Part shown: in pieces, positions 940 to 33,538 of the stretch
Layout of the letters: each line of letters starts with the position of its first letter
Position numbering within the stretch: position 1 is the stretch's first letter
The notes under the pieces: generated by a model
Database searches by the model: none
What the model saw: the letters and a program-made list of their open reading frames with translations, nothing else
Told to the model about the DNA's origin: nothing
Made by a program: the position numbers and the translations under genes
Origin: a virus
IMG/VR virus record: IMGVR_UViG_3300031084_000003
Coordinates: 1 to 39,733 of that record
DNA: 39,733 bases
Strand: one strand, 5' to 3'

Positions 940-1541
940 GCTACGTCAGTGCGGAGCATGACCGCATGATCGCCGCCATGCTGATGCCTTGTGTGGTGGT
1001 CGGCGTGGATCTGGCGGCCCCGGCGGTGCGTGTCGGCAATGGCGAATGGACCAGCGCCTGGGTGCGTTGGCATAGCCTGGCGGCCGGCAAGGCGCGACAC
1101 TGGCGCGCGCCCAGCCTGGGCGAGCAGGGGGTGTTGTTCAATCCCAGCGGCCAGGCAGGCATGGGCACGTTTATTCCAGGGCTGTACGGCAATGCCGGCG
1201 GCCCGCCGGATAACCGCGACCATGTGGAGGTGTGGCGCTTTGATGATGGTGGATCCCTGGTTTATGACTGGGAGGCCAAGAGCTACACAATCGCCCTGCC
1301 TACCGGCACGGTCACTATCAAGGTGGGCAGCACGGTTGTAACCGTTACGGATAACGCAGTGAATGCGACGGTTGGCGGTACCGAGTTCGATCTAGCGCCC
1401 GGTTGGGCCGCGATCAAATCGCCTCAGATAGCGTTGATCGGTGCGGTAGAGATCGACGGCCCGTTACACGTAACGCAGACCATCACCGGTGATGCCGATA
1501 TCTTGGCGGCCGGTAACAGCGACAACCACCACAAGCATTAA
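936..1541 (+). CDS. V: Baseplate spike / assembly protein, P2 gpV-like
   Basis: 201 aa. The N-terminal half (VVVGVDLAAPAVRVGNGEWTSAWVRW...HWRAPSLGEQGVLF...GTFIPGLYG) parallels the P2 gpV pattern by eye. Followed by W, J and I in P2 order. Confidence 0.85.
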   Translation: MSYVSAEHDRMIAAMLMPCVVVGVDLAAPAVRVGNGEWTSAWVRWHSLAAGKARHWRAPSLGEQGVLFNPSGQAGMGTFIPGLYGNAGGPPDNRDHVEVWRFDDGGSLVYDWEAKSYTIALPTGTVTIKVGSTVVTVTDNAVNATVGGTEFDLAPGWAAIKSPQIALIGAVEIDGPLHVTQTITGDADILAAGNSDNHHKH

Positions 1542-1557
1542 CCAAAATCACCTACAG

Positions 1558-1578
1558 CCCGCCGCGTGCGGGTTTTTT
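1558..1578 (+). terminator. Hairpin plus T6, candidate intrinsic terminator after V
   Basis: CCCGC-cgcgt-GCGGG followed by TTTTTT. The same 15-mer cccgccgcgtgcggg recurs at 14115..14129. Confidence 0.5.
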
Positions 1579-1595
1579 CATGCCCGGAGAAAATC

Positions 1596-1805
1596 ATGGC
1601 CAAGACCATCGAAAAGCCCGTAACCGACGAACAAGCCCCGTCCCTGACGTTCCGCGATCTGGTCTACACATCGCGCACGCTGGTTGTGCCTGGCACCGAA
1701 CGCACTTACCCAGTGGTCAAGGCCCTGGTAGTGGTGCCGGAGTCTGACAAAGAGGCTGTGGTCTTCCTGAAGGCCAGCAGCGAATACGCCGCCCAGGAGG
1801 GCTAA
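1596..1805 (+). CDS. Hypothetical 69-aa protein inserted between baseplate genes V and W
   Basis: ATG at 1596 preceded by GGAGA, and preceded by the hairpin/T-run at 1558..1578. No recognisable motif. Confidence 0.55.
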   Translation: MAKTIEKPVTDEQAPSLTFRDLVYTSRTLVVPGTERTYPVVKALVVVPESDKEAVVFLKASSEYAAQEG

Positions 1806-1810
1806 GCCAG

Positions 1811-2137
1811 ATGATCGGAATGGATCGCCACACCGGGCAGCCCATATCCGGCATCGAGCATCTGCGGCAGTCCATCGCCGATATCTTGAGTACGCCCCTT
1901 GGCAGTCGCCGGCACCGGCCGGACTACGGCAGCAAGCTACGCGGGTTTGTTGACTTGCCAATCAACGCTGGCTGGAAAAGTGCAGTTCAGGCCGAAGCGG
2001 CTCATGCCCTCGGCCGAAATGAGCCGCGCCTGAAGCTTGAGCGCGTAACGGCACTGTCGCTGCTGGACGGGAAAATCAATATGAGCGTTGCCGGCGAGTA
2101 CCTGGGCGACAGCTTTGTCTTGGAGGTAAGCGTATGA
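1811..2137 (+). CDS. W: Baseplate wedge protein, P2 gpW / T4 gp25-like
   Basis: 108 aa. GIEHLRQSIADILSTPLGSRRHRPDYGSKL is the typical GPW_gp25 N-terminal signature. ATGA overlap with J. Confidence 0.9.
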   Translation: MIGMDRHTGQPISGIEHLRQSIADILSTPLGSRRHRPDYGSKLRGFVDLPINAGWKSAVQAEAAHALGRNEPRLKLERVTALSLLDGKINMSVAGEYLGDSFVLEVSV

Positions 2138-3036
2138 GCATCGTGGATTTGTCGGCCTTGCCGGCGCCGGAGGTGCTTGAGCCGCTGGACTTCGAAGATG
2201 TCTACGGCGAAGCGTTGTCAGCGTTTCGCGGCTACATGGGCGACAACTGGAACGCCGCGCTGGAAAGCGATCCGGTCACCAAGGTGCTGGAGGTGGGGGC
2301 TTATAACAAGGTTGGCAACCGCGCCCGGGTTAACGATGCATGCAAGGCACTGCTGTTGGCACACGCCATCAAGGGCGACCTTGATCAACTGGGCGCGAAC
2401 GTCAATTTGAAACGCCTGGTGATTCAGCAGGAGGACCTGCAGGCGGTCCCGCCGGTGGCTGAAGTCCTTGAGGATGATGATTCGTTTCGTGAGCGGATCC
2501 AGTTGGCCTATGAGGGGCTGACCACGGCGGGCCCGCGTAACAGCTACATCCTGCATGCGCGTAACGCGTCCGGCTTCGTGCGGGATGCCACTGCGGAAAG
2601 CCCTTCGCCAGCGCGCGTTACCGTAACGGTGTTGAGCACGGAAGGGGACGGAACATCCGCGCCGGATTTGTTGGCCACGGTCGCTAAGGCTCTGAATGAC
2701 GAGGACGTCCGCCCATTGGGCGACCGGGTAACCGTCCAAGGCGCCGAAATTCTGAATTACCGAGTTGACGCGATCCTGCACATGAATAGTGCGGGGCCAG
2801 AAGGTGACGCGGCCCTGGCCGAGGCAAAAAGCCGACTAGCGAAGTGGATCAACCCCCGTAAACGCCTAGGTGTTGAGGTGGCGCGGTCTGCTGTGGATGC
2901 TCAGTTGCACGTTGCTGGCGTTTCGCGGGTCGAGCTGACCGGGTGGGCCGACCTATCACCTACCAAGGCGCAGGCGGCGTATTGCACCGGTTATGACGTG
3001 AGGTTGGCGGATGAGAAGCCTACTGCCCAGCAATAG
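2134..3036 (+). CDS. J: Baseplate protein, P2 gpJ-like
   Basis: 300 aa. Position and size match P2 J, with translational coupling to W and I. Confidence 0.85.
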   Translation: MSIVDLSALPAPEVLEPLDFEDVYGEALSAFRGYMGDNWNAALESDPVTKVLEVGAYNKVGNRARVNDACKALLLAHAIKGDLDQLGANVNLKRLVIQQEDLQAVPPVAEVLEDDDSFRERIQLAYEGLTTAGPRNSYILHARNASGFVRDATAESPSPARVTVTVLSTEGDGTSAPDLLATVAKALNDEDVRPLGDRVTVQGAEILNYRVDAILHMNSAGPEGDAALAEAKSRLAKWINPRKRLGVEVARSAVDAQLHVAGVSRVELTGWADLSPTKAQAAYCTGYDVRLADEKPTAQQ

Positions 3037-6069: not shown

Positions 6070-6094
6070 CGCTTTTCCTTCTGGAAGTACAACG

Positions 6095-6769
6095 ATGAAA
6101 AACGCTTTCAATAGCGCGGCCTGGCTGTGCGCGTTCGTTTTGGCCGGGTTGCAGTGGTTGGGCTTGGTGCTGTTGCGCCTGGTGCTGATCGTCCTGGGCG
6201 TGCCAGTGGTTGCCGTAGCGGTGCTATTCCCGGTTGCCGGGGTGTCGCTGAGCGATGCCCGCCCCATCGTCAACCTGCGCCGCTGGGCCTGGCTCTTTGG
6301 CAATGACTTCGACGGACTCGACGGCGATAAGCGCAACTGGTGGGCCGACAACTGCGACGCCCTGGTGATGTTCGGTCTGCTCCCGCTGCTGCGGCGCGCT
6401 GGTTTGCCGATCGGCACCCTTGCGGTCACCAGTTGGCTTGCCCGCTGGTGGTGGGCAGCTCTGCGCAACCCTGTGAACAACATGCGGCTACTGCCGGTAT
6501 TCAGTTGCCCGGTGAGCGAGTGCCTGATTGATCACCTCGGCGCGGCGCTGGTTGAGGATAAGCCCGGGCAATCTGGCTGGCAGTTCGTCAGCGCCCGGCG
6601 CCCTGATGGCCTGGCTCGTTGGTACGGGCTGTATTGCGTATGGCAACTGAGCGCCGAGCGGGCTTTTGTGTTGCGCCTGGGCTTCAAGATCAAGCCAGAA
6701 CATGCGATGGCCACCGGTGAGCCGGCCAAAGGGATGACGTTCAAGCTCAACCCTTTGAAGTCCATTTAA
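6095..6769 (+). CDS. Integral membrane protein of unknown function (moron at the P2 Z/fun position)
   Basis: 224 aa. Two strongly hydrophobic N-terminal segments (AAWLCAFVLAGLQWLGLVLLRLVLIVLGVPVVAVAVLFPVAGV), a W/R-rich middle and an RNPVNN motif. Bracketed by terminators at 6040 and 6827. Confidence 0.75.
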   Translation: MKNAFNSAAWLCAFVLAGLQWLGLVLLRLVLIVLGVPVVAVAVLFPVAGVSLSDARPIVNLRRWAWLFGNDFDGLDGDKRNWWADNCDALVMFGLLPLLRRAGLPIGTLAVTSWLARWWWAALRNPVNNMRLLPVFSCPVSECLIDHLGAALVEDKPGQSGWQFVSARRPDGLARWYGLYCVWQLSAERAFVLRLGFKIKPEHAMATGEPAKGMTFKLNPLKSI

Positions 6770-6800
6770 CCCAAGCCGGCATCCGTTCCGGATCGCCAAG

Positions 6801-6814
6801 CGTTACGCGTAACG
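6801..6814. promoter_or_regulatory. Palindrome CGTTACGCGTAACG (16-mer GCGTTACGCGTAACGC at 6800..6815), about 58 nt upstream of the sheath ATG
   Basis: Perfect copy of the dispersed palindrome family described in findings. Confidence 0.6.
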
Positions 6815-6826
6815 CGATCAACCTAC

Positions 6827-6855
6827 GGCCTCGCTTATGCGGGGCTTTTTCGTTT
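6827..6855 (+). terminator. Intrinsic terminator directly upstream of the sheath gene
   Basis: GGCCTCGC-ttat-GCGGGGCT with a T5 run, ending 17 nt before the ATG at 6872. Confidence 0.6.
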
Positions 6856-6871
6856 CTGGAGATTGAGCCTT

Positions 6872-8038
6872 ATGAGTTTCTTTCACGGTATCACCACTTC
6901 GCTGATCGACACGGGACCGCGCACTATCTCGCTCCCGTCGTCCTCGATCATCGGCCTGTGCGACACCTTCACCCCTGGCGTCCTCGGTGGTGGTAGTGCC
7001 AAGGCTGGCGAGCTGAAGCTGATCACGTCCGAGCGCGAAGCCATTGCCGCGTTCGGTACCGATTCTGCAATCACCCGGGCTTGTCAGGCGATCTATGTTC
7101 GGGCGAAGGCTGTAATCGTCGCCGTTGGCGTCCCTAAGCTCGCTGACGCCGCGCTGCAAGCGTCCGCGATCATCGGTGGCGTTCTGGCGGACGGGCACCG
7201 CACGGGGCTCCAGGCGCTGCTGGACGGCAAGAGCCGGCACAACGCCCAGCCCAAACTGCTGATCGCCCCGGGGCACTCGGCCACCCAGGCGGTGGCCACT
7301 GCCATGGATGCCCTGGCGGGCAAGCTGAGGGCGATTGCCATTGTCGACGGCCCGAACACCACCGACGAGGCCGCCATGGCCTACGCCTTGAACTTCGGCA
7401 GTAAGCGCATCTACTTGGTGGATCCGGGCGTGCAGTTCTGGAGCACCGTCGAAAGCGCGACGGTGGATGCCCCGGCTTCGGCCTGGGTGGCGGGCTTGTT
7501 TGCCTGGACCGATGCCGAGTACGGCTACTGGGCGTCGCCGTCGAACAAAGAGTTTGTCGGCATCACCGGTACCACCCGGCCGGTGGAGTACTTGGACGGC
7601 GATGAGACGTGCCGGGCCAACCTGCTCAATAACGCGAACATCACCACGATTATTCGCGATGGCGGTTACCGCCTGTGGGGCAACCGTACCTGTTCGGCGG
7701 ATGCCAAGTGGTCGTTTGTTACCCGCGTGCGTACCTGCGACATCCTCATGGATGCGATCCAGGCGGGCCACAAGTGGGCCGTAGACCGCTCGATCACGAA
7801 GACCTATGTGTCCGACGTCACCGAGGGTCTTCAAGCCTTCATGCGTGACCAGAAGAACGCGGGCGCGGTGATCAACTTCGAAGTTTACGCGGACACCGAG
7901 CGGAACACTGCCAGCCAAATCGAGCAGGGCAAAATCTACTGGCGCATTCGCTTTACCGACGTGCCGCCGGCCGAGAACCCGAATTTCCTGATCGAAGTCA
8001 CCAACGAGTGGCTGACCGAAGTACTTGAAGCAGCCTAA
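6872..8038 (+). CDS. FI: Contractile tail sheath protein, P2 FI-like
   Basis: The ORF opens at 6863 (TTG). The ATG at 6872 gives MSFFHGITTS.I..G.R.I, matching the P2 FI N-terminus pattern. 388 aa. Confidence 0.9.
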   Translation: MSFFHGITTSLIDTGPRTISLPSSSIIGLCDTFTPGVLGGGSAKAGELKLITSEREAIAAFGTDSAITRACQAIYVRAKAVIVAVGVPKLADAALQASAIIGGVLADGHRTGLQALLDGKSRHNAQPKLLIAPGHSATQAVATAMDALAGKLRAIAIVDGPNTTDEAAMAYALNFGSKRIYLVDPGVQFWSTVESATVDAPASAWVAGLFAWTDAEYGYWASPSNKEFVGITGTTRPVEYLDGDETCRANLLNNANITTIIRDGGYRLWGNRTCSADAKWSFVTRVRTCDILMDAIQAGHKWAVDRSITKTYVSDVTEGLQAFMRDQKNAGAVINFEVYADTERNTASQIEQGKIYWRIRFTDVPPAENPNFLIEVTNEWLTEVLEAA

Positions 8039-8050: not shown

Positions 8051-8554
8051 ATGATTCCTGAAATGTTGACCAACTGCGTCATGTTTGTTGATGGCGTGAG
8101 CTTTTCCGGTGATGTGCCGTCCATGACGCTGCCCAAGCTGTCGATTAAAACCGAGGAATATCGGGGGGGCGGCATGAGCGGTCCGGTCGACCTCCCCACC
8201 GGCTTGGAAAAGCTGGAAGCTGCATTCACCACCAACGGCGTGCGTAAAGAGGCTCTGAAGTTCTTCGGCCTGGCGGATCAGACCGCATGCAACCTTGTTT
8301 TCCGTGGTTCGTTCAAAGGTCAGAAAGGCACCGTCAAGTCGGTAACTGTGACGATGCGCGGATCGCTCAAAGAGGTTGATATGGGCGACTGGAAGCCAGG
8401 CGACAAAGCCGAAGTCAAACACGCCGTAGCCGTCACCTACTACAAGCTCGAAATCGACGGCCGTGTGATGTTCGAAATCGACTTTGCCAACATGGTGCAA
8501 GTGATCAACGGTGTTGATCAATTGGCCGCTGAACGTTCGGCCCTGGGCCTTTAA
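8051..8554 (+). CDS. FII: Tail tube protein, P2 FII-like
   Basis: 167 aa directly after the sheath gene. MIPEMLTNCVMFVDG... is typical of P2-type tubes. Confidence 0.85.
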   Translation: MIPEMLTNCVMFVDGVSFSGDVPSMTLPKLSIKTEEYRGGGMSGPVDLPTGLEKLEAAFTTNGVRKEALKFFGLADQTACNLVFRGSFKGQKGTVKSVTVTMRGSLKEVDMGDWKPGDKAEVKHAVAVTYYKLEIDGRVMFEIDFANMVQVINGVDQLAAERSALGL

Positions 8555-8565
8555 GGATTAACGAC

Positions 8566-8874
8566 ATGACCGATTCCCTCACTGCGCCGCTCCCTTCGTG
8601 GCTGGTCCTGAGCGACGACGGCGTTACGGTAACGCTCAAGCACAAGGCCAACTTTAATGGGGTTGTGACCGACAAACTCATGATGCGCGCGCCAAGCGTA
8701 AAGGATGTTATGGGCGCCAAGATCACCGGCAATGGTGACCATGAAAAAGTGGAGCTGAACCTGTTTTGCAGCTTGCTCACGGCCACCGAGGCAGAACTCA
8801 CGGCCCTCAAATACAAGGACTACATGCGCCTTCAGGCGGGCTATTTTCGCCTGGTTGAGGAAGACGACGTGTAA
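8566..8874 (+). CDS. E: Tail assembly chaperone, P2 gpE-like
   Basis: 102 aa between the tube and tape-measure genes. Confidence 0.8.
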   Translation: MTDSLTAPLPSWLVLSDDGVTVTLKHKANFNGVVTDKLMMRAPSVKDVMGAKITGNGDHEKVELNLFCSLLTATEAELTALKYKDYMRLQAGYFRLVEEDDV

Positions 8875-12546: not shown

Positions 12547-12918
12547 TCAGTCCAGTGCGTCCAGGCAGGCCTGCCGCTCTTTGTCGTAGCTCTCTATGCC
12601 GTTGTCGAACTGCTGTTTGTTGTTGCCAAGCAGGCCTTGCCACGACGATCCCGCGCTGATTGAAGCCTCGTTGCACTTGTGAAACGGGGTAAAGAGAACG
12701 CCGAATTTCTGGCCTTCGTTCTGGAGTGCGTTCAAGTCCTGGGCCTGCCTGCGCCGGGCTACAGGATCAATTTTGCCGCTGAGGATCTGTGCGTTTCCGC
12801 GCTCCACCGCCGCATCCAGGCGGGTAATAAAGTCCTTTGCTTCACGCTTCGTTGGTTCGGCGGCTTGGCTGGAAAGCGCAGCGCCGGCGAGCAGCGCGGC
12901 AAATAAAGTCCGTTTCAT
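12547..12918 (-). CDS. Secreted/periplasmic protein of unknown function, antisense moron between X and D
   Basis: 123 aa with a signal-peptide-like N-terminus MKRTLFAALLAGAALSSQA/AEP and two Cys. AAAGGAA Shine-Dalgarno (SD) sequence. Candidate promoter TGGACT-N17-TAGAAT on the minus strand (12975..12980 and 12952..12957). Confidence 0.75.
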   Translation of the reverse strand: MKRTLFAALLAGAALSSQAAEPTKREAKDFITRLDAAVERGNAQILSGKIDPVARRRQAQDLNALQNEGQKFGVLFTPFHKCNEASISAGSSWQGLLGNNKQQFDNGIESYDKERQACLDALD

Positions 12919-12985: not shown

Positions 12986-12999
12986 CGTTACGCGTAACG
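12986..12999. promoter_or_regulatory. Palindrome CGTTACGCGTAACG (16-mer at 12985..13000) in the divergent region between the antisense moron and D
   Basis: Perfect copy. It starts 5 nt upstream of the candidate -35 of the minus-strand promoter and lies 45 nt before the D ATG. Confidence 0.6.
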
Positions 13000-13043
13000 C
13001 CACCCCTTAATCCCGCCCTGTGCGTTCTCTTGGTCAATGCCCT

Positions 13044-14810: not shown

Positions 14811-15355
14811 TCCCGGCAACGCTGCGGCCCTGGGCGTCTGTCCTGGCGGTGCTGTTGATCGCTGGCGCCGGCGCGTGGGGCGCCTGGACTGTGCAGGACT
14901 TGCGTTACGGTAACGCGCTGGCCAAGCAAGAAACCAAGGCCGCCGAGAAGGCGCGAGGCATTGCCGAATCGACGGCCGCGCAACTCAGGCGCGAGCAGAG
15001 CCGGGGCCTGGCCCTGGAAGCTCGCATAAGGATCGATGAACAGGCCCACTACAAGGAACTCACCGATGCAAAGAAAGCTCGCCAGCTTGTGTTTGATCGT
15101 CTTGCCACTACTGATTTGCGGCTGTCAGTCCTCCTTGCCGCTGGATCCGGCCGCCCAGGTGATGCCGGAGTGTCGGCCACCACCAGCCCCGGCGGCGTGG
15201 ATCATGGAGGCGCGCGAGCCGAACTTGACCCAGCGCATGCTCAAAGAATTGTCGGCATCACCGGTGACGGTGACGACGGACTAACCGCGCTGGCTGCGTG
15301 CCAGGGTTGGGTGCGTGAAGTCTTGACGGCGGGCAAGACGGCGGCGGCATTGTAG
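14792..15355 (+). CDS. Rz: i-spanin (Rz-like)
   Basis: 187 aa with an N-terminal TM (WASVLAVLLIAGAGAWGAW), then coiled coil. It overlaps the endolysin 3' end and contains the Rz1 ORF in the +1 frame. Confidence 0.8.
   Translation: MSALDLIPATLRPWASVLAVLLIAGAGAWGAWTVQDLRYGNALAKQETKAAEKARGIAESTAAQLRREQSRGLALEARIRIDEQAHYKELTDAKKARQLVFDRLATTDLRLSVLLAAGSGRPGDAGVSATTSPGGVDHGGARAELDPAHAQRIVGITGDGDDGLTALAACQGWVREVLTAGKTAAAL
15066..15284 (+). CDS. Rz1: o-spanin (Rz1-like lipoprotein) embedded in Rz
   Basis: MQRKLASLCLIVLPLLICGCQSS has a lipobox-like signal, followed by a Pro-rich mature part (PECRPPPAPAAW). Nested within Rz as in lambda. Confidence 0.75.
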   Translation: MQRKLASLCLIVLPLLICGCQSSLPLDPAAQVMPECRPPPAPAAWIMEAREPNLTQRMLKELSASPVTVTTD

Positions 15356-18837: not shown

Positions 18838-20529
18838 ATGGCTAAGAAGAAAACCGACGCCCAGGAACTGCCGCTGGAGCAGCAGCCGCTGTTCCTCAAA
18901 ACTCTTGAATTTCTGCCGGCCGAACGTGCCGCCCTGGAGCAACTGGCCGGCGATATGCTGCGGCTGTTCAACGATGCCATGGTTGCCAGCAGTGCGCGCG
19001 ACATTGAAACGTCAGTGCTTCGGTATAAAGCGGTGGTCTATCGATTGAATGGCGATACGTTCATGGGGTGCGCCACGGATGAGGGTGCAGGGGGGCAGTT
19101 GCTCAAGCAGTTAGCCGCGCCTGCAGGTGTGGTGCCAGGCTGGGGACAGGCCGGCCAATATTTGCTTGATATCGACGGCATGCGGCTGCGCGTGAACGTA
19201 GACCCCTGGAGCATGGGAGGCATGCACAGTTTGAGTTTTCGCGCTGTAGACGCCTCGGCCAAGTTCATCAGTGAAACAGGCTACCTGAGCCAGTTCCTGC
19301 ACACTGACAAGCATGTGGGCCAAACCTTCGGCCAGGCGGTGCGCGCCCTGGTGGAGCAGCTACTGCATGGCGAGTTCAAGCCGAAGGCCATCCGCGAGGA
19401 AGATCGCGCCAAGATCACCGTGCCGGCCTGGCTTGTGCCGGCACTGCAAGGCGTTACGCGTAACGGTCAGTTGAATATGCCGCTGTCGGGTGAGCCGCAA
19501 TTGACTGAGCCGGTAGCGAAGGTGCCACTGAGCAACGCCAAGCGGCAGCAACTGCACCGGCAGCGCCTCAAGGAGCGCGCGCAGACCGAAGGGCTTAAAG
19601 TTATCCCGCTGACCCAAGAAGAGCGCATGGTGTTGAGCCTGGGCGTGCTGGCTCATGAGGATTTGTTTCATCGGCCGAAGGACTGGGCCACCAGCAAGAA
19701 GCCTGGATTTGATTCGCTGCTGATCAAGCTGTGGCCCGAAGGCGATGACGGCCGTTATTTGGCTGAGCCTGAGCGTAGCACCCGCCGGCCTGCTGGGTTC
19801 CTGCGCGATGAGTTGAAGTATCAGCGCGAGCGAGTCACCCGCCTTGAGATTGAAAACCGCGCGCTGCGCGCCGGTGAGCCAGTAGCCGGTGAGGTGGTCG
19901 TGTCCGCTGATGACCCGCATAACTGGGCGCGCACCGTGAAGCTGACGCGGGATGAAGATTCGCTGATGCTGTGGGCTTTCAGTGTGTTTTTCACGGCACG
20001 CGCTGACCTCGATCACTTGAAGTCGCCTTTAGTGCTGGAGAACCTAGAGACGATATTTCAGGGTTGCCCCATGTGGACCGAGAAATTCAAGGCCCAGCTG
20101 GATCAGGATCAGGGGATAATCAACGGCACCAAATACCGGGAAAAAGAGGCTAAGCGCGGCTGGAAATGTTACGAAGATGAGCGAAAGCAAAACGTCCAGT
20201 TGTTCAAAGAGCGGGCCGCTGATCGCGCTGAAATCGAGCGTCTAAAAGCCGCGCTCAACGAGATTGCCGCCGAGGTTGGGGCACCAGCTGCGGCGCCTAT
20301 GGTGCGCAAGCATGATGGCAAGCCCATGGATTTGGAGGGCCTGAATCGTGAAGTTGATTGGCTGGTAGGTGAGCTGAACAAGGCTACGGCCAAGGCCGAC
20401 GCGGTGGAAAGAGAGCAGGTTTTGCTGGAGTCTGAGCGAAACAAGGCGTTTGAGGCCAACAAGACTTTGACCGAGCGCCTACGCCGCGCAGGCCTGCCGA
20501 CCGATTACCGCAAGCAACCGGGCGAGTGA
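18838..20529 (+). CDS. Large hypothetical protein (563 aa) with a coiled-coil C-terminal third
   Basis: GGAG SD. Protein-like composition throughout. C-terminal heptad-like charged region (ERLKAALNEIAAE..., KATAKADAVEREQVLLESERNKAFEANKTLTERL). No catalytic motif recognised. Confidence 0.75.
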   Translation: MAKKKTDAQELPLEQQPLFLKTLEFLPAERAALEQLAGDMLRLFNDAMVASSARDIETSVLRYKAVVYRLNGDTFMGCATDEGAGGQLLKQLAAPAGVVPGWGQAGQYLLDIDGMRLRVNVDPWSMGGMHSLSFRAVDASAKFISETGYLSQFLHTDKHVGQTFGQAVRALVEQLLHGEFKPKAIREEDRAKITVPAWLVPALQGVTRNGQLNMPLSGEPQLTEPVAKVPLSNAKRQQLHRQRLKERAQTEGLKVIPLTQEERMVLSLGVLAHEDLFHRPKDWATSKKPGFDSLLIKLWPEGDDGRYLAEPERSTRRPAGFLRDELKYQRERVTRLEIENRALRAGEPVAGEVVVSADDPHNWARTVKLTRDEDSLMLWAFSVFFTARADLDHLKSPLVLENLETIFQGCPMWTEKFKAQLDQDQGIINGTKYREKEAKRGWKCYEDERKQNVQLFKERAADRAEIERLKAALNEIAAEVGAPAAAPMVRKHDGKPMDLEGLNREVDWLVGELNKATAKADAVEREQVLLESERNKAFEANKTLTERLRRAGLPTDYRKQPGE

Positions 20530-20534: not shown

Positions 20535-20548
20535 TGTTATGCGTAACG
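20535..20548. promoter_or_regulatory. Palindrome variant TGTTATGCGTAACG, about 20 nt upstream of the ATG at 20568
   Basis: Two mismatches to CGTTACGCGTAACG. Intergenic. Confidence 0.45.
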
Positions 20549-21597: not shown

Positions 21598-21632
21598 CGC
21601 CGCGTTACCAATAACGCCGCTTATGTATAAAA

Positions 21633-22819: not shown

Positions 22820-23014
22820 TTACACGCCCTGGGCCTGGGCGGCTTTGTCCAGGGCTTCGGCCAGGATCTGCGCGGCGGTGCTGAGTGAGCTGTAGAGCTT
22901 GGCTAATTCCAGTTCCGGCGCGCTGGCCGGCGTGCGCCGGTATTGCGCGTGGTACTGGCGGAAATCGGCCAGGGTTTGCAGTTCGTGCGCGGTCAGGTCC
23001 AGGGTGATCAACAT
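22820..23014 (-). CDS. Hypothetical helical protein (64 aa), convergent with the preceding operon
   Basis: GAGG SD 7 nt upstream on the minus strand. Its stop abuts the stop of the plus-strand gene. Confidence 0.5.
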   Translation of the reverse strand: MLITLDLTAHELQTLADFRQYHAQYRRTPASAPELELAKLYSSLSTAAQILAEALDKAAQAQGV

Positions 23015-23030: not shown

Positions 23031-23044
23031 CGTTATGCGTAACG
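23031..23044. promoter_or_regulatory. Palindrome variant CGTTATGCGTAACG, about 17 nt upstream of the minus-strand start at 23014
   Basis: One mismatch to the perfect 14-mer. It is the reverse complement of the variant at 31451. Confidence 0.5.
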
Positions 23045-23061: not shown

Positions 23062-23094
23062 AAAAAAAACCGCCTTAGAGAGGGCGGTCTTTTC
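23062..23094. terminator. Bidirectional hairpin terminator (A8-ACCGCC-ttagagag-GGCGGT-CTTTTC)
   Basis: Read directly. Confidence 0.6.
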
Positions 23095-23772: not shown

Positions 23773-24033
23773 TCACTTCCCGCCCTTAGCGTCCTTGAGT
23801 AGGGCAAAGCCTTGGCGAAGAACATCAACCATGCTCATCTTGTGCATGGCCGCAAACATCTTAAGCTCATGCTTGAATTGAGCGTCCACCTTGAAGTTGG
23901 CTGTTACAAGTTCTTCTGGTGCCGCCTGGTGGGTGTGGCCGGCTTTGCTCAGTGCTTCGGCAGCCAGTGGCGAGGCCGGGGCGATGCCCTTCGTGGAGTT
24001 GCGGCGAGGTGGCTTCGGGGCTTGTACTGTCAT
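23773..24033 (-). CDS. parG: Ribbon-helix-helix DNA-binding protein, ParG-like centromere-binding/repressor candidate
   Basis: 86 aa. A disordered basic N-terminus, then ANFKVDAQFKHELKMFAAMHKMSMVDVLRQGFALL, a strand-helix-helix pattern like TP228 ParG. Directly downstream of the ParA-like gene. Confidence 0.65.
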   Translation of the reverse strand: MTVQAPKPPRRNSTKGIAPASPLAAEALSKAGHTHQAAPEELVTANFKVDAQFKHELKMFAAMHKMSMVDVLRQGFALLKDAKGGK

Positions 24034-24045: not shown

Positions 24046-24072
24046 TTTAATTCGTTAATTCGTCAATTCGTT
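24046..24072 (-). repeat. ACGAA box array D (3 boxes) between the parA stop and parG start
   Basis: TTCGT at 24051, 24059 and 24067 on the plus strand (ACGAA on the minus strand), 8-bp phasing. Confidence 0.85.
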
Positions 24073-24718
24073 ACTTGGATTGTAGCGCAGTAGCGCGAGC
24101 GATGATTGCGCTAATTAGTTGTTCGGCCTGGCCGCGCAACCCTTTGTGTGAAACTTCGATAACGGATAAGCCTACGTCCATGGCGCGGCTGTAGCTGACC
24201 TTTTGCGGGAGGTAGCCGGCTAATACGTGATAAGGCTTTGCGCCGAGGTAAGCTTGAGCTTCTTCAAGTTCGGCTTGGCTGTCGCCTACGTGATTCAGGG
24301 CGAAGGCGATTCGCGCGGTCGGGATGCTGTGTTTGTAATGGAGAGCGTCGGCCAGCTCTACGGCCGGCTCTAGATCGTCCAAAGCCAGGCCGGTAGGTAT
24401 CACCAGCAGGTCGCAAGCTTCGGCCATGGCGGCCGTGTCCTTGCTGGCGCGTGGGGCGCCGTCGAAGATCATTGCGTCGTAGTCGTCAGCGCGTGCCAGC
24501 GCGTGCCCCATGGAGCCAAACTGCTCTACTGATACCTGCGGTGTGTGTCCGCGCTGCAAGCGACGCACGCCCCAGCGTGTACTGGTCGACTGGTTTAGGT
24601 CAAAGTCGGCGATCTTAACGGCCCAGCCATTTTGCGCGAGTCCGACAGCCGTGCCGCGTGCGTTGGTGGATTTGCCAGGTCCACCCTTCTGTGTTGCGAA
24701 GCCAATGAATAGTGCCAC
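24071..24718 (-). CDS. parA: Partition ATPase, small ParA/ParF-type (deviant Walker A)
   Basis: 215 aa. N-terminal FATQKGGPGKST is the KGGxGKS/T deviant Walker A. GTG start with a GAGGG SD. Confidence 0.85.
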   Translation of the reverse strand: MALFIGFATQKGGPGKSTNARGTAVGLAQNGWAVKIADFDLNQSTSTRWGVRRLQRGHTPQVSVEQFGSMGHALARADDYDAMIFDGAPRASKDTAAMAEACDLLVIPTGLALDDLEPAVELADALHYKHSIPTARIAFALNHVGDSQAELEEAQAYLGAKPYHVLAGYLPQKVSYSRAMDVGLSVIEVSHKGLRGQAEQLISAIIARATALQSK

Positions 24719-24732: not shown

Positions 24733-24775
24733 AATTCGTCAATTCGTCAATTCGTCAATTCGTTAATTCGTTAAC
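24733..24775 (-). repeat. ACGAA box array E (5 boxes), between the par promoter and the parA start
   Basis: TTCGT at 24735, 24743, 24751, 24759 and 24767 on the plus strand. Confidence 0.9.
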
Positions 24776-24813: not shown

Positions 24814-24814
24814 G

Positions 24815-24842
24815 AAATAACGAATTAACGAAATAACGAAGT
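24815..24842 (+). repeat. ACGAA box array F (3 boxes, inverted relative to array E)
   Basis: ACGAA at 24820, 24828 and 24836. Confidence 0.85.
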
Positions 24843-24844
24843 AT

Positions 24845-26476: not shown

Positions 26477-26740
26477 GTGGAACTAAACAAGTGGATTGAA
26501 ATCGTCGGCGCTGTAGAGCCAGGAGGCAAGTTAGGCCAGGCTGGCCTGGGCGCTGTCGCCAGTCTACTCGGCGAAAAGGCACGTACTGTGTCCTCTTGGT
26601 ATCGCCAAGAGCGCATACCGTCATTCACTGCCGGTGCCAATATCGTCCTCAAGTCCAAGGGGCTGGTGGACTGGAACGGAATCTATACCCCTTTCGCAAT
26701 CAAGCTGTTCCGGCCTGGTGCTAATCATGCCGGCGATTAA
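26477..26740 (+). CDS. cro: Cro-like HTH regulator
   Basis: 87 aa, divergent from cI. AVASLLGEKARTVSSWYRQERIP is a Cro/YdaS-like HTH. GTG start without an obvious SD sequence. Confidence 0.6.
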   Translation: MELNKWIEIVGAVEPGGKLGQAGLGAVASLLGEKARTVSSWYRQERIPSFTAGANIVLKSKGLVDWNGIYTPFAIKLFRPGANHAGD

Positions 26741-27293
26741 CCTGCCTATCGGCTTCTCCCAACAACCCGTTGTTCTGAAGGTAGAACAGCGGTTTGGCCT
26801 GGCTGGCTTCGCTCGCCTGGTTAAATTGTTGGAGTTGTTCGCGGCAAGCCCGTTGCGCGATATGGGCGTGATCGAATTGCCCATAAGCGACTGGGGGGAT
26901 GCTCTGCAATCTGGCCCGCTCAACGCCTCCGTGTTGTTGGACTACCTGAGCAATGACGGCTGGCTATCCCAAGAGCGCGGCGCCGAATCTGGATCAGCGT
27001 TACGCGTAACGCTGACGCACTTTGCTGACTTCTTGCCCGTACTTGAAATGCCGAAAACACCAGAGCAGTGGATTGGCTGGTTTCGGTCTGAGCTGAACAT
27101 GCCCGACCAGCACGGAACAGACCCTGACAATCAGGCTTTGTTCCGCCGTTGGTGTGCCACCAACGTGACGATTGAAGAAATGAATGCCGCCATAGAGCTG
27201 GCAGTTAAGGCGGGTAGGGGCTTCGCCCCGGCGTGCCTGCATTCCCTTTTGATGACTGTGCGAAAAGAAAAACTAGAAATGGCCCGCCGTTGA
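26727..27293 (+). CDS. Hypothetical early protein (188 aa), possible DNA-binding/replication-associated
   Basis: ATG at 26727 inside ORF 26634..27293. Second gene of the rightward early operon. It contains a perfect palindrome copy at 26998. Confidence 0.5.
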   Translation: MPAINLPIGFSQQPVVLKVEQRFGLAGFARLVKLLELFAASPLRDMGVIELPISDWGDALQSGPLNASVLLDYLSNDGWLSQERGAESGSALRVTLTHFADFLPVLEMPKTPEQWIGWFRSELNMPDQHGTDPDNQALFRRWCATNVTIEEMNAAIELAVKAGRGFAPACLHSLLMTVRKEKLEMARR

Positions 27294-29060: not shown

Positions 29061-30329
29061 ATGGCGCAAACCCTTAAAGTCCAAATATCTGACGCTGCTA
29101 TTAGGCGGTATGCGGAGGATCTGACCATTGGTGAGCTGAAAGACCCACGGCACCCGTTGCGCTTTCGTTACCGTAACGACAGAAGCAAAGGTAGTTGGCA
29201 CCTGATCCGTTTTGACAAGGGGGGCAAGTGGAGAAAGGCCGCCAACTGGCCCGAGGTTCCGGCACGGCTGATGATCGACAGTGTGCCCGTGGTGATGGCT
29301 CGCCTGATGACTGACCCCGAAGCGGTGGCCACCGTGGATGGCTGGGAGTCAGTTGGCCAAGTATTGCGCTGGTACGTCGACCGGCTGAAGGTCGATAGAG
29401 GGCTATCCAAGGATCGGCGCTCGTCCTCGATGTCGGTGATCAATCGCCAGTTGTTGCCCGCCCTGGACACGCTACCGCTATGCAAGATCAACCGTGACAC
29501 CCTCGACCGGCATTTGGTCTGGCACATGCAGGAAGAGTACAGCCTGGGCTACGTTAAATCGGCCCTGGACGTACTGAAGGTGATTTTTGGGCGAGCCTTG
29601 ATCCTCAAGAAAATCACCGTAAACCCGCTGGCTGGTGTGACCTTCGGCAACTTTACCAAGGTCAAGATCCGGCCCAAGGGTGCACGCCTTCGTCATGTCG
29701 CCGTTGTGGATCTGCTGGCTGATTGGGCGGAGGCCTTCCAGGCTGATCCTGCTGGCATTGCCTTAATGGTGCTGATGCTGACCCATGGCACGCGGATCAC
29801 TGAAACCCGCCTGGCCAAGTGGAAGAACGTCCACCTACAGGAAGGGGAGTGGTTTATTCCTGGGGCTGATACCAAGTCGAAACGCGACCACCTGTTGCCG
29901 CTGACGCCTGCCGCTGCGGCCTTCCTTGACCGGTACCGAGAAAACCAAAAGGCGCGGGGGTATGACGGGGCCTATCTGTTCCCGTCTGCTACTCACCCCG
30001 GCCGGCCTATGTCGCGTAGCCAGGCGTTTGCCGTCTTCACTCGCTACGGCGCCGGCGAATGGACCAGTCATGACCTGCGCAAACTGGCGCGTACCTGCTG
30101 GGCCAAATTCCGCGTGGATAGCCTAGTGGTGAAGCTGCTGCTCAACCACTCCCTGACCGATTTGGAGGCGACCTACTTTCAAGACCGAGGCGAGGACATC
30201 AAGCGCGACGCCCTGGAGCGCTGGCACGAATGGCTCAACGCACAGGGTTTTGATGCGTTGCAGGACAAGACAGGAGCAAGACGCGCCGTTAAGCCCACTG
30301 CCGTAGACCCTGCGGGATGGCTGGCTTAG
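29061..30329 (+). CDS. int: Tyrosine integrase, P4-like (N-terminal arm-binding domain plus C-terminal catalytic domain)
   Basis: 422 aa. N-terminus LKDPRHPLRFRYRNDRSKGSWHLIR (DUF4102-like). C-terminus HGTRITE...HDLRKLARTCW...LLNHS....ATYF contains the R..H.xR..Y catalytic pattern. Confidence 0.9.
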   Translation: MAQTLKVQISDAAIRRYAEDLTIGELKDPRHPLRFRYRNDRSKGSWHLIRFDKGGKWRKAANWPEVPARLMIDSVPVVMARLMTDPEAVATVDGWESVGQVLRWYVDRLKVDRGLSKDRRSSSMSVINRQLLPALDTLPLCKINRDTLDRHLVWHMQEEYSLGYVKSALDVLKVIFGRALILKKITVNPLAGVTFGNFTKVKIRPKGARLRHVAVVDLLADWAEAFQADPAGIALMVLMLTHGTRITETRLAKWKNVHLQEGEWFIPGADTKSKRDHLLPLTPAAAAFLDRYRENQKARGYDGAYLFPSATHPGRPMSRSQAFAVFTRYGAGEWTSHDLRKLARTCWAKFRVDSLVVKLLLNHSLTDLEATYFQDRGEDIKRDALERWHEWLNAQGFDALQDKTGARRAVKPTAVDPAGWLA

Positions 30330-30369: not shown

Positions 30370-30804
30370 ATGACCGAGCGAGCGAAGTTTGGCGGCGACG
30401 GCATGAATCATGGCCGCGTTGAAATTCCTGTGTCTTGGCCTGTGACTGGTCACAGCGATGGCGAAAACGAACTGAGCCCCGAGGCGCAGCGCAAACGGGA
30501 GCAGCGAGAGCGCGAAAAAGAGGCCGGCGTTGAGGTGTTTGAGCTGAAAATGGGGCCTGCGGAGAGGCTGATGTTGGCTGAAGGCCGCGTGCGGCGGGGC
30601 TCTAAGGGTGTTCCGTATACCGCAACCGAGTACTTTTTGACGCTGCTGAGAAACGACAACCGGTTGTTGGAAAAGCAGCTCGAAAAGCTGGATGGCCGCA
30701 CCTGCAAAAACTGCCAGAAGCAATTGCCACGGGGCTGCGGCGGCACTTGGGCGCGTGAGTCGCGGTGCCTTTTGGCGCGATCAGAGGTCGCCCTGGAGCT
30801 GTGA
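30370..30804 (+). CDS. Hypothetical protein (144 aa) between int and the late promoter
   Basis: AAGAGGA SD in an AT-rich leader. Charged coiled segment and a C-terminal CKNC....C cluster. Confidence 0.55.
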   Translation: MTERAKFGGDGMNHGRVEIPVSWPVTGHSDGENELSPEAQRKREQREREKEAGVEVFELKMGPAERLMLAEGRVRRGSKGVPYTATEYFLTLLRNDNRLLEKQLEKLDGRTCKNCQKQLPRGCGGTWARESRCLLARSEVALEL

Positions 30805-30844
30805 GGCGCAGCCAAAAATCCAAGGGTTGACAGTGTGCGGGTTT

Positions 30845-30905: not shown

Positions 30906-30962
30906 TCGCTGCATTGTGGTGTTGTTCCGGCCACGATGCTCATGGCGACACAGTTCATTCAG

Positions 30963-30993
30963 CCCCCGGCCCTCACAGGTCGGGGGTTTTTTT
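30963..30993 (+). terminator. tR'-like intrinsic terminator about 60-90 nt downstream of PR'
   Basis: CCCCCGGCC-N-GGTCGGGGG stem followed by T7, ending immediately before the holin region. Confidence 0.8.
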
Positions 30994-31026
30994 ATGCCTA
31001 TTCCCCGTCATTCGGGAGAAATCGAG

Positions 31027-31353: not shown

Positions 31354-31478
31354 GGGTCCGGCCGCTGGTGACGTTGTTGGTGGTCCTGCTGGCTTACGCC
31401 TTGACGGGGCATGTGGATTGTCGAGAGTCGGAAGCCTGCCAGGCACCGACCGTTACGCATAACGAGGTGATGAATTGA
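31350..31478 (+). CDS. Candidate 42-aa membrane peptide overlapping the holin stop (GTGA)
   Basis: MRVRPLVTLLVVLLAYALTG... Its stop overlaps the TTG start of the next ORF. It is below the ORF-track cut-off and contains the palindrome variant at 31451. Confidence 0.3.
   Translation: MRVRPLVTLLVVLLAYALTGHVDCRESEACQAPTVTHNEVMN
31451..31464. promoter_or_regulatory. Palindrome variant CGTTACGCATAACG, 11 nt upstream of the 31475 start
   Basis: One mismatch to the perfect 14-mer. Confidence 0.5.
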
Positions 31479-31846
31479 ATAAGTATCGAGTGACTGTGCC
31501 AGGTGGAACCGTTCATTTTGTCGAGGCTGAGCGAATGGAGTTGTTGGAAAGTACCCTCGCCTTGTTTGTTGGTCAGCTCATCAAAGCCCATTTTCCCGTG
31601 ATCGAGAGTGTGCTTGTGGATCTGGCGGTTGCGCAGCCTCAGGCCCTGATGGCTGGTGTTCCACTTTGCCGTGAGGTGCCGGCCGAGGCTGCTGTTTCGG
31701 CGCTGGGGATGGTTGACCTTCCTCCGACCGTCTCGATTGGCTCGATCCATATTGCTGTGGGTTCGATTGATGATGCCCGCGCTGCGCTGGCTTCGGCCCT
31801 GGCTGAGTTCCGCGCCTTTTGCCGTCATGAGGGCGTTCACCAATGA
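31475..31846 (+). CDS. Hypothetical protein (123 aa)
   Basis: TTG start preceded by GAGGTG. No motif recognised. Confidence 0.45.
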   Translation: MNKYRVTVPGGTVHFVEAERMELLESTLALFVGQLIKAHFPVIESVLVDLAVAQPQALMAGVPLCREVPAEAAVSALGMVDLPPTVSIGSIHIAVGSIDDARAALASALAEFRAFCRHEGVHQ

Positions 31847-32062
31847 AGTGATTCCAGGGCCTTCTCGGCCGCAAGAGACGATTAATCCCCTCGACAGGAA
31901 GCCGGTGCGCCGGCGGGATCGCTTGGCACGACGAGAGAATATCGGGCCCGGATTGCGCCAGTAGCTGCTGGCACCGACAGCGGGACAGTGTGCCCACGCG
32001 ATGCGGCCTGTTAGCACGGGCGCCGGATGCGTAACCGGCTCAATCATTCGAAAGGTGTCCGT

Positions 32063-32800
32063 ATGTTCAAGATCGATTTAGGGTTTGATTCTGCCCCGGT
32101 CACTGCGGGCATGCTGGAGCTGGAGAAAAAGCACCTGCCCTTCGTGGCGGCCCTGACCGCTACCCGGCTGGCCCAGCGGGTCAAGAAGGGCACCATTACG
32201 GTGATGCAGAAGCGCCTGGATCGGCCAACCCCGACCACGCTGAATAGCCTGTTTGTGAAGATGGCCACCAAGAGCCGGGCGGCCCAGGTCTATTTCAAAG
32301 ACTCTTGGGCGTCTGGTGTGCCTGCTGACACCTACCTACAGCAGGCGGTGAGTGGCGGTCTGCGGCCTCACAAGCGCTTTGAAAAGTCGCTTATTGCGCA
32401 CGGCATCATGCGTAGCGGCCAATATGCGGTGCCCACCACGGCTTTTATGAACCAATACGGCAACGTGTCGCGAGGCACGATGCTGAAAATCCTGTCGGGC
32501 CTGGGGGCTGCTGAGTCAAAGCGGGGCTATCAGGCGAATGCCAGCGGCAGTGCCAAGAGTCGACGCAAGGGGAATGCCCATCGCTATTTCTCTGGTGATG
32601 TCGACGGCACGCAGGGTGTGTGGGAGCGCAAGTCTATGGGTATGGGCGATGCGGTGCGGCCGGTGTTCATCTTTGCCGACTCGGCCCCGCGATATCGCAC
32701 CATCTTTCCGTTCTTCAAGATCGCCGAGAACATCGTGAAGGCCAACCGAGAGGAAGAGTTCGCGGCCGCCTGGGCGCAGGCCCTGGGCAGTTCGCGCTGA
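32063..32800 (+). CDS. Hypothetical protein (245 aa), possibly virion-associated
   Basis: ATG at 32063 (AAAGGTG SD) within ORF 32027..32800. It lies just upstream of the cos/terS region. No motif confidently recognised. Confidence 0.6.
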   Translation: MFKIDLGFDSAPVTAGMLELEKKHLPFVAALTATRLAQRVKKGTITVMQKRLDRPTPTTLNSLFVKMATKSRAAQVYFKDSWASGVPADTYLQQAVSGGLRPHKRFEKSLIAHGIMRSGQYAVPTTAFMNQYGNVSRGTMLKILSGLGAAESKRGYQANASGSAKSRRKGNAHRYFSGDVDGTQGVWERKSMGMGDAVRPVFIFADSAPRYRTIFPFFKIAENIVKANREEEFAAAWAQALGSSR

Positions 32801-32863
32801 GGTGCGTCATGGGAGCGGAAAGGGTGAAAAAAGACGGCTTTTCGTCGTCTTTCTGCGTTTTTT

Positions 32864-32945
32864 GGCTTGACAAGCCCCCCCGGGGGCAAAAACCAAAAGG
32901 TACTCCCGGACCCCACCCCCTAAGGGGGTAATTCGGGCCCCGCCT
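32864..32945. other. Candidate cos / packaging-recognition region
   Basis: ORF-free stretch just upstream of the Nu1-like terS. It carries a C7G5 run (32875..32886) and the palindrome ACCCCCTAAGGGGGT (32915..32929). Confidence 0.35.
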
Positions 32946-32986
32946 CATCGCTATGTATGACCCTTTTCCAGAGGTTGGTTGTTGTT

Positions 32987-33538
32987 ATGTCTTCGAAGAT
33001 CACCACCATCACGCGTCAGCCGGGATGGCTGAACAAGAAGAACATGGCCGACAGCCTCGGAATTTCAGTGCAAGCCTTTGATAAATGGGACGTCGCGGCA
33101 GTCGCGAAGATCGGCCGCGAGTCGTTTTATGACGTCCGGTCGGTGCTGGATAACCGCCTGCAACACCAGACCGGCAAGCAACAACCTGGCGCCGATGAAG
33201 TCGATCCGCTGATTAGTTACAAGATCGATTGCGAACGGTTGCGCCTGACCAAAGAGCAGGCCGACGCCCAGGCGCGCAAAAACAAGGTCGGCGACAAGGA
33301 GCTTGTGCCGGTCGGTTTCATGATTTTTGCCCTGTCCAGTTTGTCGGCGCAGTTGGCCTCAACCCTTAATACCATTCCCAAGAGCGTAAAGCGCAAGCAT
33401 CCCGATATTGCCGTGCGTCACCTCGACGCCGTAGAAACCGAGATTGCCGTTACGCGTAACGCTGCCGTGGGTTTGGCTGACCGCGTGCCGGAGCTTCTGG
33501 ATGAGTACATCGCCTCTTTGGATGAGGCCACTGGTTGA
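32987..33538 (+). CDS. nu1: Terminase small subunit, lambda Nu1-like
   Basis: From the ATG at 32987. WLNKKNMADSLGISVQAFDKWDV........GRESFYDVRSV matches the Nu1 winged-HTH N-terminus pattern. Confidence 0.8.
   Translation: MSSKITTITRQPGWLNKKNMADSLGISVQAFDKWDVAAVAKIGRESFYDVRSVLDNRLQHQTGKQQPGADEVDPLISYKIDCERLRLTKEQADAQARKNKVGDKELVPVGFMIFALSSLSAQLASTLNTIPKSVKRKHPDIAVRHLDAVETEIAVTRNAAVGLADRVPELLDEYIASLDEATG

Follow-up and report, generated by a model that had tools for sequence, protein, structure and literature searches.

Dispersed CGTTAC-N1-2-GTAACG palindromes in a Pseudomonas phage genome and a KlcB-family protein as their candidate binder

Introduction

Short palindromic sites spread around a replicon are found in the IncP-1 plasmids (RK2/RP4), where KorA and KorB both have short palindromic operators round the replicon, some at promoters and some within genes, and in the phage-plasmid N15, whose centromere sites are dispersed through its genome. 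Here we describe scattered copies of the palindrome CGTTAC-N1-2-GTAACG in a stretch of viral DNA of 39,733 nucleotides (nt) (IMG/VR record IMGVR_UViG_3300031084_000003, positions 1 to 39,733), referred to at its full length as the window, together with a KlcB-family protein encoded in the same DNA that is a candidate to bind them. An original prediction, made from the sequence of the window, had listed thirteen copies and likened them to the KorB operators of RK2 and to ParB parS sites. The part of this analogy that concerns dispersed operators of a plasmid-type global DNA-binding protein is retained here, whereas the parS or centromere part is not, as parA in the window is flanked by arrays of its own.

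The IncP-1 operators and the window palindromes may be alike in serving plasmid-backbone proteins, the candidate binder having a KlcB-type N-terminal domain. The site of the window differs in sequence from OA, OB and OC, as we take these operators to read, no KorB/ParB or KorA homolog was present among the window open reading frames (ORFs) scanned, and the replicon is that of a tailed phage. The KorB-interaction module of KorA and TrbA is also present in IncP-1 KlcB, which has been described as a protein of undetermined function with no predicted DNA binding (PMC2665229); it is not known to bind DNA, whereas the KlcB-family protein of the window is a putative binder. N15 resembles the window as a phage-plasmid with several separate copies of one short palindrome, but its four separate sites, IR1-4 of SopB, are a partition centromere bound by a ParB-type protein (PMC7205306), whereas the window palindrome is separate from the partition arrays and does not co-vary with them. 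A further parallel is offered by the rolling-circle regulators known as RepB-RCR_reg (PF10723), which share an N-A-E-R-Q...R-x-R basic helix and operator copies flanking their own gene, although in the window the motif sits within a multidomain protein of 563 amino acids (aa). For that family no cognate DNA site was found described in the searchable literature, and literature searches with the palindrome as a string returned only primers. The system described here is distinct from both KorA/KorB and N15 SopB in having no ParB/KorB, in the separation of its sites from the centromere, in a proposed recognition module that is undescribed and in the persistence of the sites where the gene is absent.

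At about 39.7 kb, the window represents the complete genome of a temperate Pseudomonas myovirus. It has a lambda-like set of head and packaging genes (Nu1/GpA terminase, portal, ClpP-capsid fusion), and its contractile tail is of the P2/R-pyocin type. A leftward operon encodes in order an S24 repressor, an 83-aa ORF, a GerE-type helix-turn-helix (HTH) protein, ParA and an 86-aa protein; the tyrosine integrase gene stands apart from it on the plus strand, with the rightward early genes on one side and the lysis genes on the other. A near-identity search of GenBank phages with the window gave no match, and the closest named relatives, P. aeruginosa phages and the R-pyocin, have only tail or terminase homologs. 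Syntenic relatives have been deposited as circular Pseudomonas plasmids, namely pPL-38ph (P. lundensis) and pHN2, and the conjugative plasmid pA506 shares part of the left-hand region of the window. Because these relatives were deposited as circular plasmids the element is best read as a phage-plasmid, a lifestyle taken from the records of its relatives. The pHN2 record (NZ_CP085886.1, our locus L181; 81,985 bp) is itself a head-to-tail dimer of a 41.2-kb unit, its gene order repeating from about 41,243.

The palindromes and their conservation

A pattern search of the window found ten copies with perfect arms and 15 with at most one mismatch. All of the copies in the original prediction are present where it had placed them, and three degenerate copies absent from its list lie at 1343, 21603 and 22093 (Table 1). 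The claim that such a number is not due to chance is borne out by dinucleotide shuffles of the window, which lead one to expect 0.01-0.04 copies, and by the codon-preserving comparison that had been suggested, in which 300 synonymous-codon permutations were made inside each gene, leaving the proteins and the per-gene codon usage unchanged. These permutations gave a mean of 0.11 exact coding copies (maximum 2) against 8 observed, and a mean of 1.27 (maximum 5) against 10 observed when one mismatch was allowed. Non-coding copies make up 5 of the 15 with at most one mismatch, though non-coding DNA is 11.7% of the window. Isolated half-sites are not enriched, since the window has 17 CGTTAC hexamers and 13 of these form part of palindromes. 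Conservation in the arms is lowest at the innermost base pair, and the centre is free, which gives a core of CGTTA-N3-4-TAACG, and beyond a weak G...C flank no extended consensus was found around the copies of the window.

At least 119 stretches of IMG/VR contain the exact 14-mer, and 93 of 119 are relatives of this phage. BLAST blocks shared with these relatives start precisely at 6801 and 12985/6, the palindrome being the first conserved element past the variable tail-fibre region and past a moron. Where homologs span a site, identity is 0.86-1.00 in the motif columns and 0.69-0.90 in the flanks; this margin is wide at 1462, 2616, 31451 and 33448, which many homologs cover, and narrow at sites covered by no more than one or two. 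The clearest case is the copy in terS, for which homologs were gathered by anchoring on TerL, without regard to the motif: of 48 distinct homologs, 41 have it exact, and its third codon positions are about eight-fold less variable than those outside it (pairwise difference 0.04 versus 0.32, in both of the classes of relatives defined below). Orthologous sites vary in their centres, which are C or G in the 13-mers and GC, AC, TC or CC in the 14-mers, and 13-mers remain 13-mers. Sites also turn over, as pHN2 is without the terS copy and has one at the 3' end of terL, yet holds 14 in total; in this plasmid and in pPL-38ph, which has 7, the copies lie all round the genome.

The scatter of palindromes is therefore genuine and is maintained by selection at the level of DNA. 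The comparison with relatives that had been proposed as a check thus yields orthologous copies, conserved also at synonymous positions, and the earlier view that the constraint is on nucleic acid rather than protein can be sharpened to double-stranded DNA, given that synonymous positions inside the motif are frozen, the arms conserved and the centre variable. This pattern is, as far as sequence comparison can tell, the signature of selection on double-stranded DNA read symmetrically through the arms, and we consider it very probable that the palindromes are selected protein-binding sites.

Several copies lie close to gene starts, and the distances given earlier for five of them were recovered (Table 1), as was the antisense promoter-like site beside the copy at 12986. 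At the sheath gene and at gene D there is a conserved layout of palindrome, 12-20 nt, GC hairpin with a T run, about 15 nt and start codon. The 12986 copy is kept in most alleles of the X-D intergenic region, 12-20 nt upstream of the conserved hairpin and T run, and the copy some 60 nt upstream of the sheath gene is also found in relatives gathered by anchoring on D. These two placements, with that of the terS copy about 40 nt before the start of terL, are what might favour a role as an RNA-level hairpin in termination or processing, as a late-promoter activator site or as a terminase-binding site. We regard any of these as very unlikely, because what is conserved in the arms is their sequence, compensatory changes being absent and the innermost pair the least conserved, half of the copies lie inside genes without a nearby start, and no sigma-70-like hexamers occur at a fixed distance from the copies. 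A TerS or cos site was rejected on the cos region (32800-32960), which has zero half-sites, and a late-activator site on the late regulators of the two classes of relatives, which are unrelated (a Q-like protein versus a 144-aa phrog_536 protein). An intrinsic property of the tail module was likewise rejected, the P. aeruginosa R-pyocin cluster having one near-match only and an F10-like record (L122) none.

The GC hairpin with its T run, about 15 nt before the sheath and D start codons, is retained also in the alleles without the palindrome, which number 17 of 64. In alleles with the antisense moron, the window included (around 13005-13030), the hairpin upstream of D is degenerate.

Relation to the partition system

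The window encodes a partition module that the original prediction had missed, consisting of ParA (24071-24718, minus strand) and an 86-aa protein (23773-24033) with the strand-helix-helix sequence pattern of ribbon-helix-helix (RHH) centromere-binding proteins, a pattern match read by eye. Inverted arrays of AATTCGTY octamers lie upstream of parA at 24733-24774 and 24814-24843, around a promoter-like site, and a third array (24049-24074) lies between parA and the 86-aa gene. Taken together, ParA, the RHH protein and the arrays are probably a partition locus of type Ib that has a centromere and an operator of its own. Their layout of 4-bp box and 4-bp AT-rich spacer is that of ParF/ParG-parH of TP228 (PMC3130281); that system resembles the ParA/RHH system of the window and not the palindrome, and would indicate the octamer arrays as the most likely centromere of the element.

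It might still be supposed that the palindromes are parS-like centromere sites for the ParA system, scattered in the manner of the N15 sites or the KorB OB sites, seeing that a ParA ATPase gene is present, that relatives were deposited as plasmids and that N15 sets a precedent with IR1-4 (PMC7205306). This we find hardly credible. The octamers flank parA itself and are followed by the RHH protein, in the ParF/ParG-parH layout (PMC3130281), while the nearest palindromes, those at 23031 and 26998, lie some 1.0 kb and 2.3 kb from parA and none directly flanks it. The arrays flanking parA are AATTAGCK octamers in pHN2 and other repeats in pPL-38ph, whereas the palindrome is identical in both. Integrative relatives have the sites and lack ParA; conversely, Vibrio phage VPHZ6 has the same gene order, ParA included, and no convincing dispersed palindrome. 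No ParB/KorB was found in Pfam, PHROG and NCBIfam scans of the non-structural ORFs, in which ParA was found. Because the arrays differ between relatives while the palindrome is unchanged, the palindrome is, across the genomes compared, not the partition centromere and is independent of that of ParA.

A KlcB-family protein as candidate binder

The original prediction had put forward a LuxR-type HTH protein, an XRE-HTH protein or an orphan protein as binder. These suggestions find no support: the LuxR/GerE protein is restricted to window-like relatives, and elsewhere nothing connects it with the motif, while the ORF proposed as XRE-HTH (18086-18505) has no HTH in Pfam. The better candidate is the neighbouring 563-aa ORF at 18838-20529. 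Its N-terminal part of about 200 aa (residues ~25-200) has 35-37% identity to annotated IncP-1 klcB in tblastn, and close homologs carry precomputed PF27190/PF27393 matches. The feature that makes it a candidate is a short basic helix (residues 233-251; window segment LSNAKRQQLHRQRLK) in which N233, R236, Q237, R241 and R243 are invariant in 44 KlcB-family homologs, and which among the proteins of the window occurs only in this ORF. In an AlphaFold2 model the N-terminal domain has a predicted local distance difference test (pLDDT) score above 90, the motif helix scores about 72 and the C-terminus is made of long helices. A basic leucine zipper (bZIP) was tried as an explanation and failed: the N-x7-R spacing is present, but in the models of both this protein and the Burkholderiaceae protein described below a loop parts the basic helix from the next helix or coiled coil, and a protein in which the two do not run on as one helix is not a bZIP. 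The RepB-RCR_reg family gave no match to the window ORF even at E <=10, and only some distant small relatives carry PF10723.

Plasmid pA506 has a KlcB-family gene 77% identical to that of the window and carries three exact and four near copies of the palindrome. P. aeruginosa plasmids with a KlcB-like LSGAERQKRRREK, in which G replaces N and R replaces F, have only one exact copy. In pHN2, as in the window, a copy lies 6 nt past the stop codon of the KlcB-family ortholog. Two further candidates were rejected: the 144-aa phrog_536 protein has weak profile similarity (E 0.0013, probability 19%) and is missing the invariant N, and the 'RepB' of pA506 belongs to a different family.

The palindrome and the basic helix in other mobile elements

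A motif-first scan for the exact 14-mer, with one genome per species, gave at least 120 genome matches, of which a sample of 120 was considered. Most are single matches scattered across phyla and look like chance. The 12 matches in Pseudomonas all lie within related prophages, and the absence of chromosomal Pseudomonas copies among the 120 speaks against an abundant host motif such as an uptake sequence, Chi or a repetitive extragenic palindromic (REP) element. Loci of Trinickia soli, T. dinghuensis and Paraburkholderia domus, on the other hand, have three to five clustered copies each, both 13- and 14-mers, in the promoter, body and end of a gene for a 162-186-aa protein that adjoins Zot-like and secretin-like inovirus genes (assignments by reading). 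This Burkholderiaceae protein has an AT hook, a helix M-T/S-N-A-Q/E-R-Q-A-A-F/W-R-A-R (residues 27-40) and a coiled coil, and the motif is helical in an AlphaFold2 model of the Trinickia protein (pLDDT about 80). The signature N-A-x-R-Q-x3-R-x-R is invariant in both this family and the KlcB-family protein, and hhalign aligned the two motif regions over 24 columns with probability 91% and E 1e-6. A precomputed PF10723 match is carried by some of the Burkholderiaceae proteins and by some of the profile matches.

When a hidden Markov model (HMM) of the motif was run against the six-frame ORFs of all retrieved sequences, it matched an ORF overlapping a palindrome, or at most about 700 nt from one, in 6 of 26 viral contigs unrelated to the phage, and one further genome locus matched as well. 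A seventh viral contig (L108) had scored 0.006 in an earlier run, the ORF being a phage replisome organiser with three copies of the palindrome in its gene. In 3.1 Mb of protein-anchored control loci the model found KlcB-family ORFs only. By these profile matches, the sites co-occur with the basic-helix motif in unrelated mobile elements.

As a tentative proposal, which we think possible but less likely than not, site and helix would make up a newly recognised, widely mobile pair, in which a basic helix of about 20 residues (S/T-N-A-x-R-Q-x2-aromatic-R-x-R), often after an AT hook, reads CGTTAC-N1-2-GTAACG. Inovirus regulators, phage replisome organisers, a conjugative plasmid and tailed phage-plasmids would all have drawn on this pair; in the last of these it would make the KlcB-family protein a genome-wide regulator or organiser, with the sites selected also in relatives that do not encode it. 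If the pairing is true, KlcB-family proteins gain a testable DNA-binding function, and a new small recognition module with a defined target would aid the annotation of regulators in inoviruses, plasmids and phage-plasmids. It would also provide a second, non-centromeric case of a phage-plasmid backbone protein that addresses the whole genome, late genes included.

Three observations stand beside these. The P. aeruginosa proteins P0258, P0261 and P0279 are small (64-83 aa) and have an AT hook with LSNAERQRLYRQRQ; at least two of them are encoded on a 7.24-Mb contig. In metagenome-assembled genomes of Vulcanimicrobiota and Synergistia with a GC content of 36-38% (L350, L404, L411, L426, L457 and others) the 14-mer falls within heptamer-phased runs of CGTTACG/CGTAACG/CGTGACG, several per 8 kb, a kind of repetition that seems unrelated to the sites described here. 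A related prophage (L023; IMGVR_UViG_3300048919_000249) has at its end eight tandem 52-bp repeats, with a palindrome in each, at 8378-8756, flanked by a Dam-type methylase gene and umuDC; they resemble an iteron or decoy array, and no motif-bearing ORF was found in the stretch examined.

Two classes of relatives and the identity of the binder

The structural module from terS to D is common to two kinds of genome, with 70-97% protein identity. Class A is window-like and has the early and plasmid region of the window; the early region of class B is that of an ordinary integrative lambdoid phage, encoding DnaB, an O-like protein, a Q-like antiterminator and a different integrase. Counted as sites with at most one mismatch per 10 kb, density in class A (16 loci) is 2.97 in the structural module and 2.98 elsewhere, and in class B (71 loci) it is 3.00 in the structural module and 0.11 elsewhere (7 sites in 655 kb).

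Much of what weighs against the KlcB-family protein comes from class B, which has neither a KlcB-family gene nor any motif-bearing ORF, and in which the site density of the structural module nevertheless equals that of class A, the constraint on synonymous sites at terS is the same, and the ratio of exact to one-mismatch sites is not significantly different (a class B excess of the latter with an odds ratio of 1.6, p = 0.24). To this must be added that the similarity to the Burkholderiaceae protein is limited to some 24-35 residues and that pairwise BLASTP of that protein against the window ORFs was not significant, that the central region of the KlcB-family model is moderately confident, that the model had no fold match in the PDB at E <=0.001, and that Pfam and NCBIfam show no DNA-binding domain in the ORF. 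The retention of sites in class B would mean either that another protein of the same specificity is present in the hosts or that the modules are continually re-derived from phage-plasmids, unless the binder is something else entirely. Because class B keeps the sites without the candidate gene, we hold the view that the palindromes are dispersed operator-like sites bound by the KlcB-family protein through its basic helix to be evenly poised between right and wrong.

The first of these options, that a factor from outside the window-specific region (a host protein or a small basic-helix protein from another resident element) binds the sites in both classes and that the KlcB-family protein would, at most, use them in addition, accounts directly for the equal density and constraint in relatives without any window-specific gene, and small proteins of 50-90 aa with an AT hook and the same motif are widespread, some of them on P. 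aeruginosa chromosomes. It sits less well with the Pseudomonas matches (12 among the 120 sampled genome matches), which all fall in related prophages and give no sign of chromosomal sites, and with the 7 copies only in about 655 kb of non-structural integrative DNA, which would be odd for a generally available and useful factor; nor was such a host gene identified in hosts of the fluorescens group. We therefore think it rather unlikely, though worth serious consideration.

The second option places selection in the phage-plasmids only and makes the integrative relatives recent recombinants with neutral relic sites, a source-sink relation. The structural modules of the two classes are indeed interleaved, with up to 90-97% protein identity, the parts specific to integrative genomes are almost without sites, conversion of a phage-plasmid to an integrative prophage is documented for P1-like elements (PMC10879196), and the slight one-mismatch excess in the integrative class, though not significant, is in the direction that relics would give. 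Against it, the samples hold 5-10 times as many relatives of the integrative class, yet no decay is measurable in that class, and its third-position distance to the nearest sampled window-like sequence is 0.1-0.4; on balance we consider it improbable. The two classes amount to a natural experiment, either on mobile elements that regulate each other in trans or on short-lived integrative offshoots; if true, selected sites in relatives that do not encode the binder imply regulation in trans between co-resident mobile elements.

Proposed mode of action

Returning to the KlcB-family protein as binder, we infer that a symmetric dimer would bind double-stranded DNA at CGTTA-N3-4-TAACG, the recognition element being the short basic helix S/T-N-A-x-R-Q-x-x-(F/Y/H)-R-x-R, and that two such helices would dock in the major grooves of the two arms. 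The protein would comprise the KlcB-type N-terminal domain, the basic helix and the long C-terminal helices. A free centre, with both 13- and 14-mers kept, fits a dimer with two independently docking helices. For a centre of one or two bases there is a parallel in GCN4, which binds both AP-1 and CRE sites.

With one site in the KlcB-family gene and one just after it, and about 15 genome-wide, a single plasmid-backbone protein could act on the whole replicon. The effect might be global repression or tuning of transcription, notably upstream of the sheath and D hairpins, or alternatively bridging or compaction of the DNA through the coiled coil. The sites beside hairpins, at the sheath gene, at D and at 23069-23088, suggest an effect on termination or on read-through into those genes.

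Features of the window

The coordinates of the palindromes and of the features tied to them are collected in Table 1.

Table 1. Palindrome copies and associated features of the window
Feature	Position	Strand	Context and conservation
Degenerate copy CGTTACGGATAACG	1343..1356		In baseplate gene V; variant kept in 5/6 spanning homologs, both relative classes
One-mismatch 14-mer CGTTACACGTAACG	1462..1475		Near 3' end of gene V; arms conserved in 13 homologs, centre GC/AC/TC
Exact 13-mer CGTTACCGTAACG	2616..2628		Baseplate gene J; orthologous centre C or G
Exact 14-mer, intergenic (16-mer with flanks, GCGTTACGCGTAACGC)	6801..6814		58 nt before sheath ATG (6872), then terminator-like hairpin
GC-rich hairpin and T run	6827..6846	+	Between palindrome and sheath start codon
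Exact 13-mer	8622..8634		Tail gene E; most D-anchored relatives have a copy at equal offset from D
Exact 14-mer, intergenic (16-mer, GCGTTACGCGTAACGC)	12986..12999		45 nt before D ATG (13044)
Exact 13-mer	14903..14915		Rz-like spanin gene; window-like relatives only
KlcB-family protein, 563 aa	18838..20529	+	Best candidate binder; homologs named KlcB family by NCBI
Exact 14-mer	19452..19465		In KlcB-family gene, codes GVTRNG; orthologous copy in pA506
Basic helix LSNAKRQQLHRQRLKERAQTE	19528..19590	+	Codons 231-251 of KlcB-family ORF; proposed DNA-recognition element
Two-mismatch copy TGTTATGCGTAACG	20535..20548		6 nt past KlcB-family stop codon; 19 nt before 20568
Degenerate copy CGTTACCAATAACG, intergenic	21603..21616		Identical variant in pHN2 and pA506
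One-mismatch 14-mer CGTTATGCGTAACG, intergenic	23031..23044		Between bidirectional terminator-like hairpin 23069-23088 and minus-strand gene 22820-23014; 16-17 nt before 23014
Exact 14-mer (16-mer, GCGTTACGCGTAACGC)	26998..27011		Early ORF 26727-27293; exact in 3/3 homologs; orthologous copy in pPL-38ph
Exact 13-mer	29166..29178		Integrase gene; still a 13-mer in 6/8 homologs, also in pPL-38ph and pHN2
One-mismatch 14-mer CGTTACGCATAACG, intergenic	31451..31464		Variant shared by 5/6 homologs; ~10 nt before 31475
Exact 14-mer	33448..33461		3' end of terS, ~40 nt before terL start; most widely conserved copy

Two small accessory genes abut palindromes. One is an extra ORF at 31475-31846 (plus strand), directly 3' of the 31451 copy, which is missing from a relative that is 96-98% identical (L146); the other, at 12547-12918 (minus strand), is the moron between X and D, with its own promoter-like site. 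In an integrative relative (L125) a low-GC gene for a 436-aa protein (6170-7480, minus strand) lies between the Q-like and holin genes and may be accessory cargo.

In pPL-38ph, pHN2 and pA506 (L121 4773-5410, L181 36468-37104, L461 17098-17733) the KlcB-family gene has a HicA/HicB toxin-antitoxin pair 3' of it, either immediately or with one small ORF between; the pair is not at that position in the window. The gene for the 144-aa phrog_536 'transcriptional regulator' (30370-30804) comes after that for the integrase in every window-like relative and also in Vibrio phage VPHZ6. The protein has a basic helix, strand and helix weakly like the motif region of the KlcB-family protein, together with a CxxC...C cluster, and is probably a late regulator that replaces the Q-like protein of the integrative relatives.

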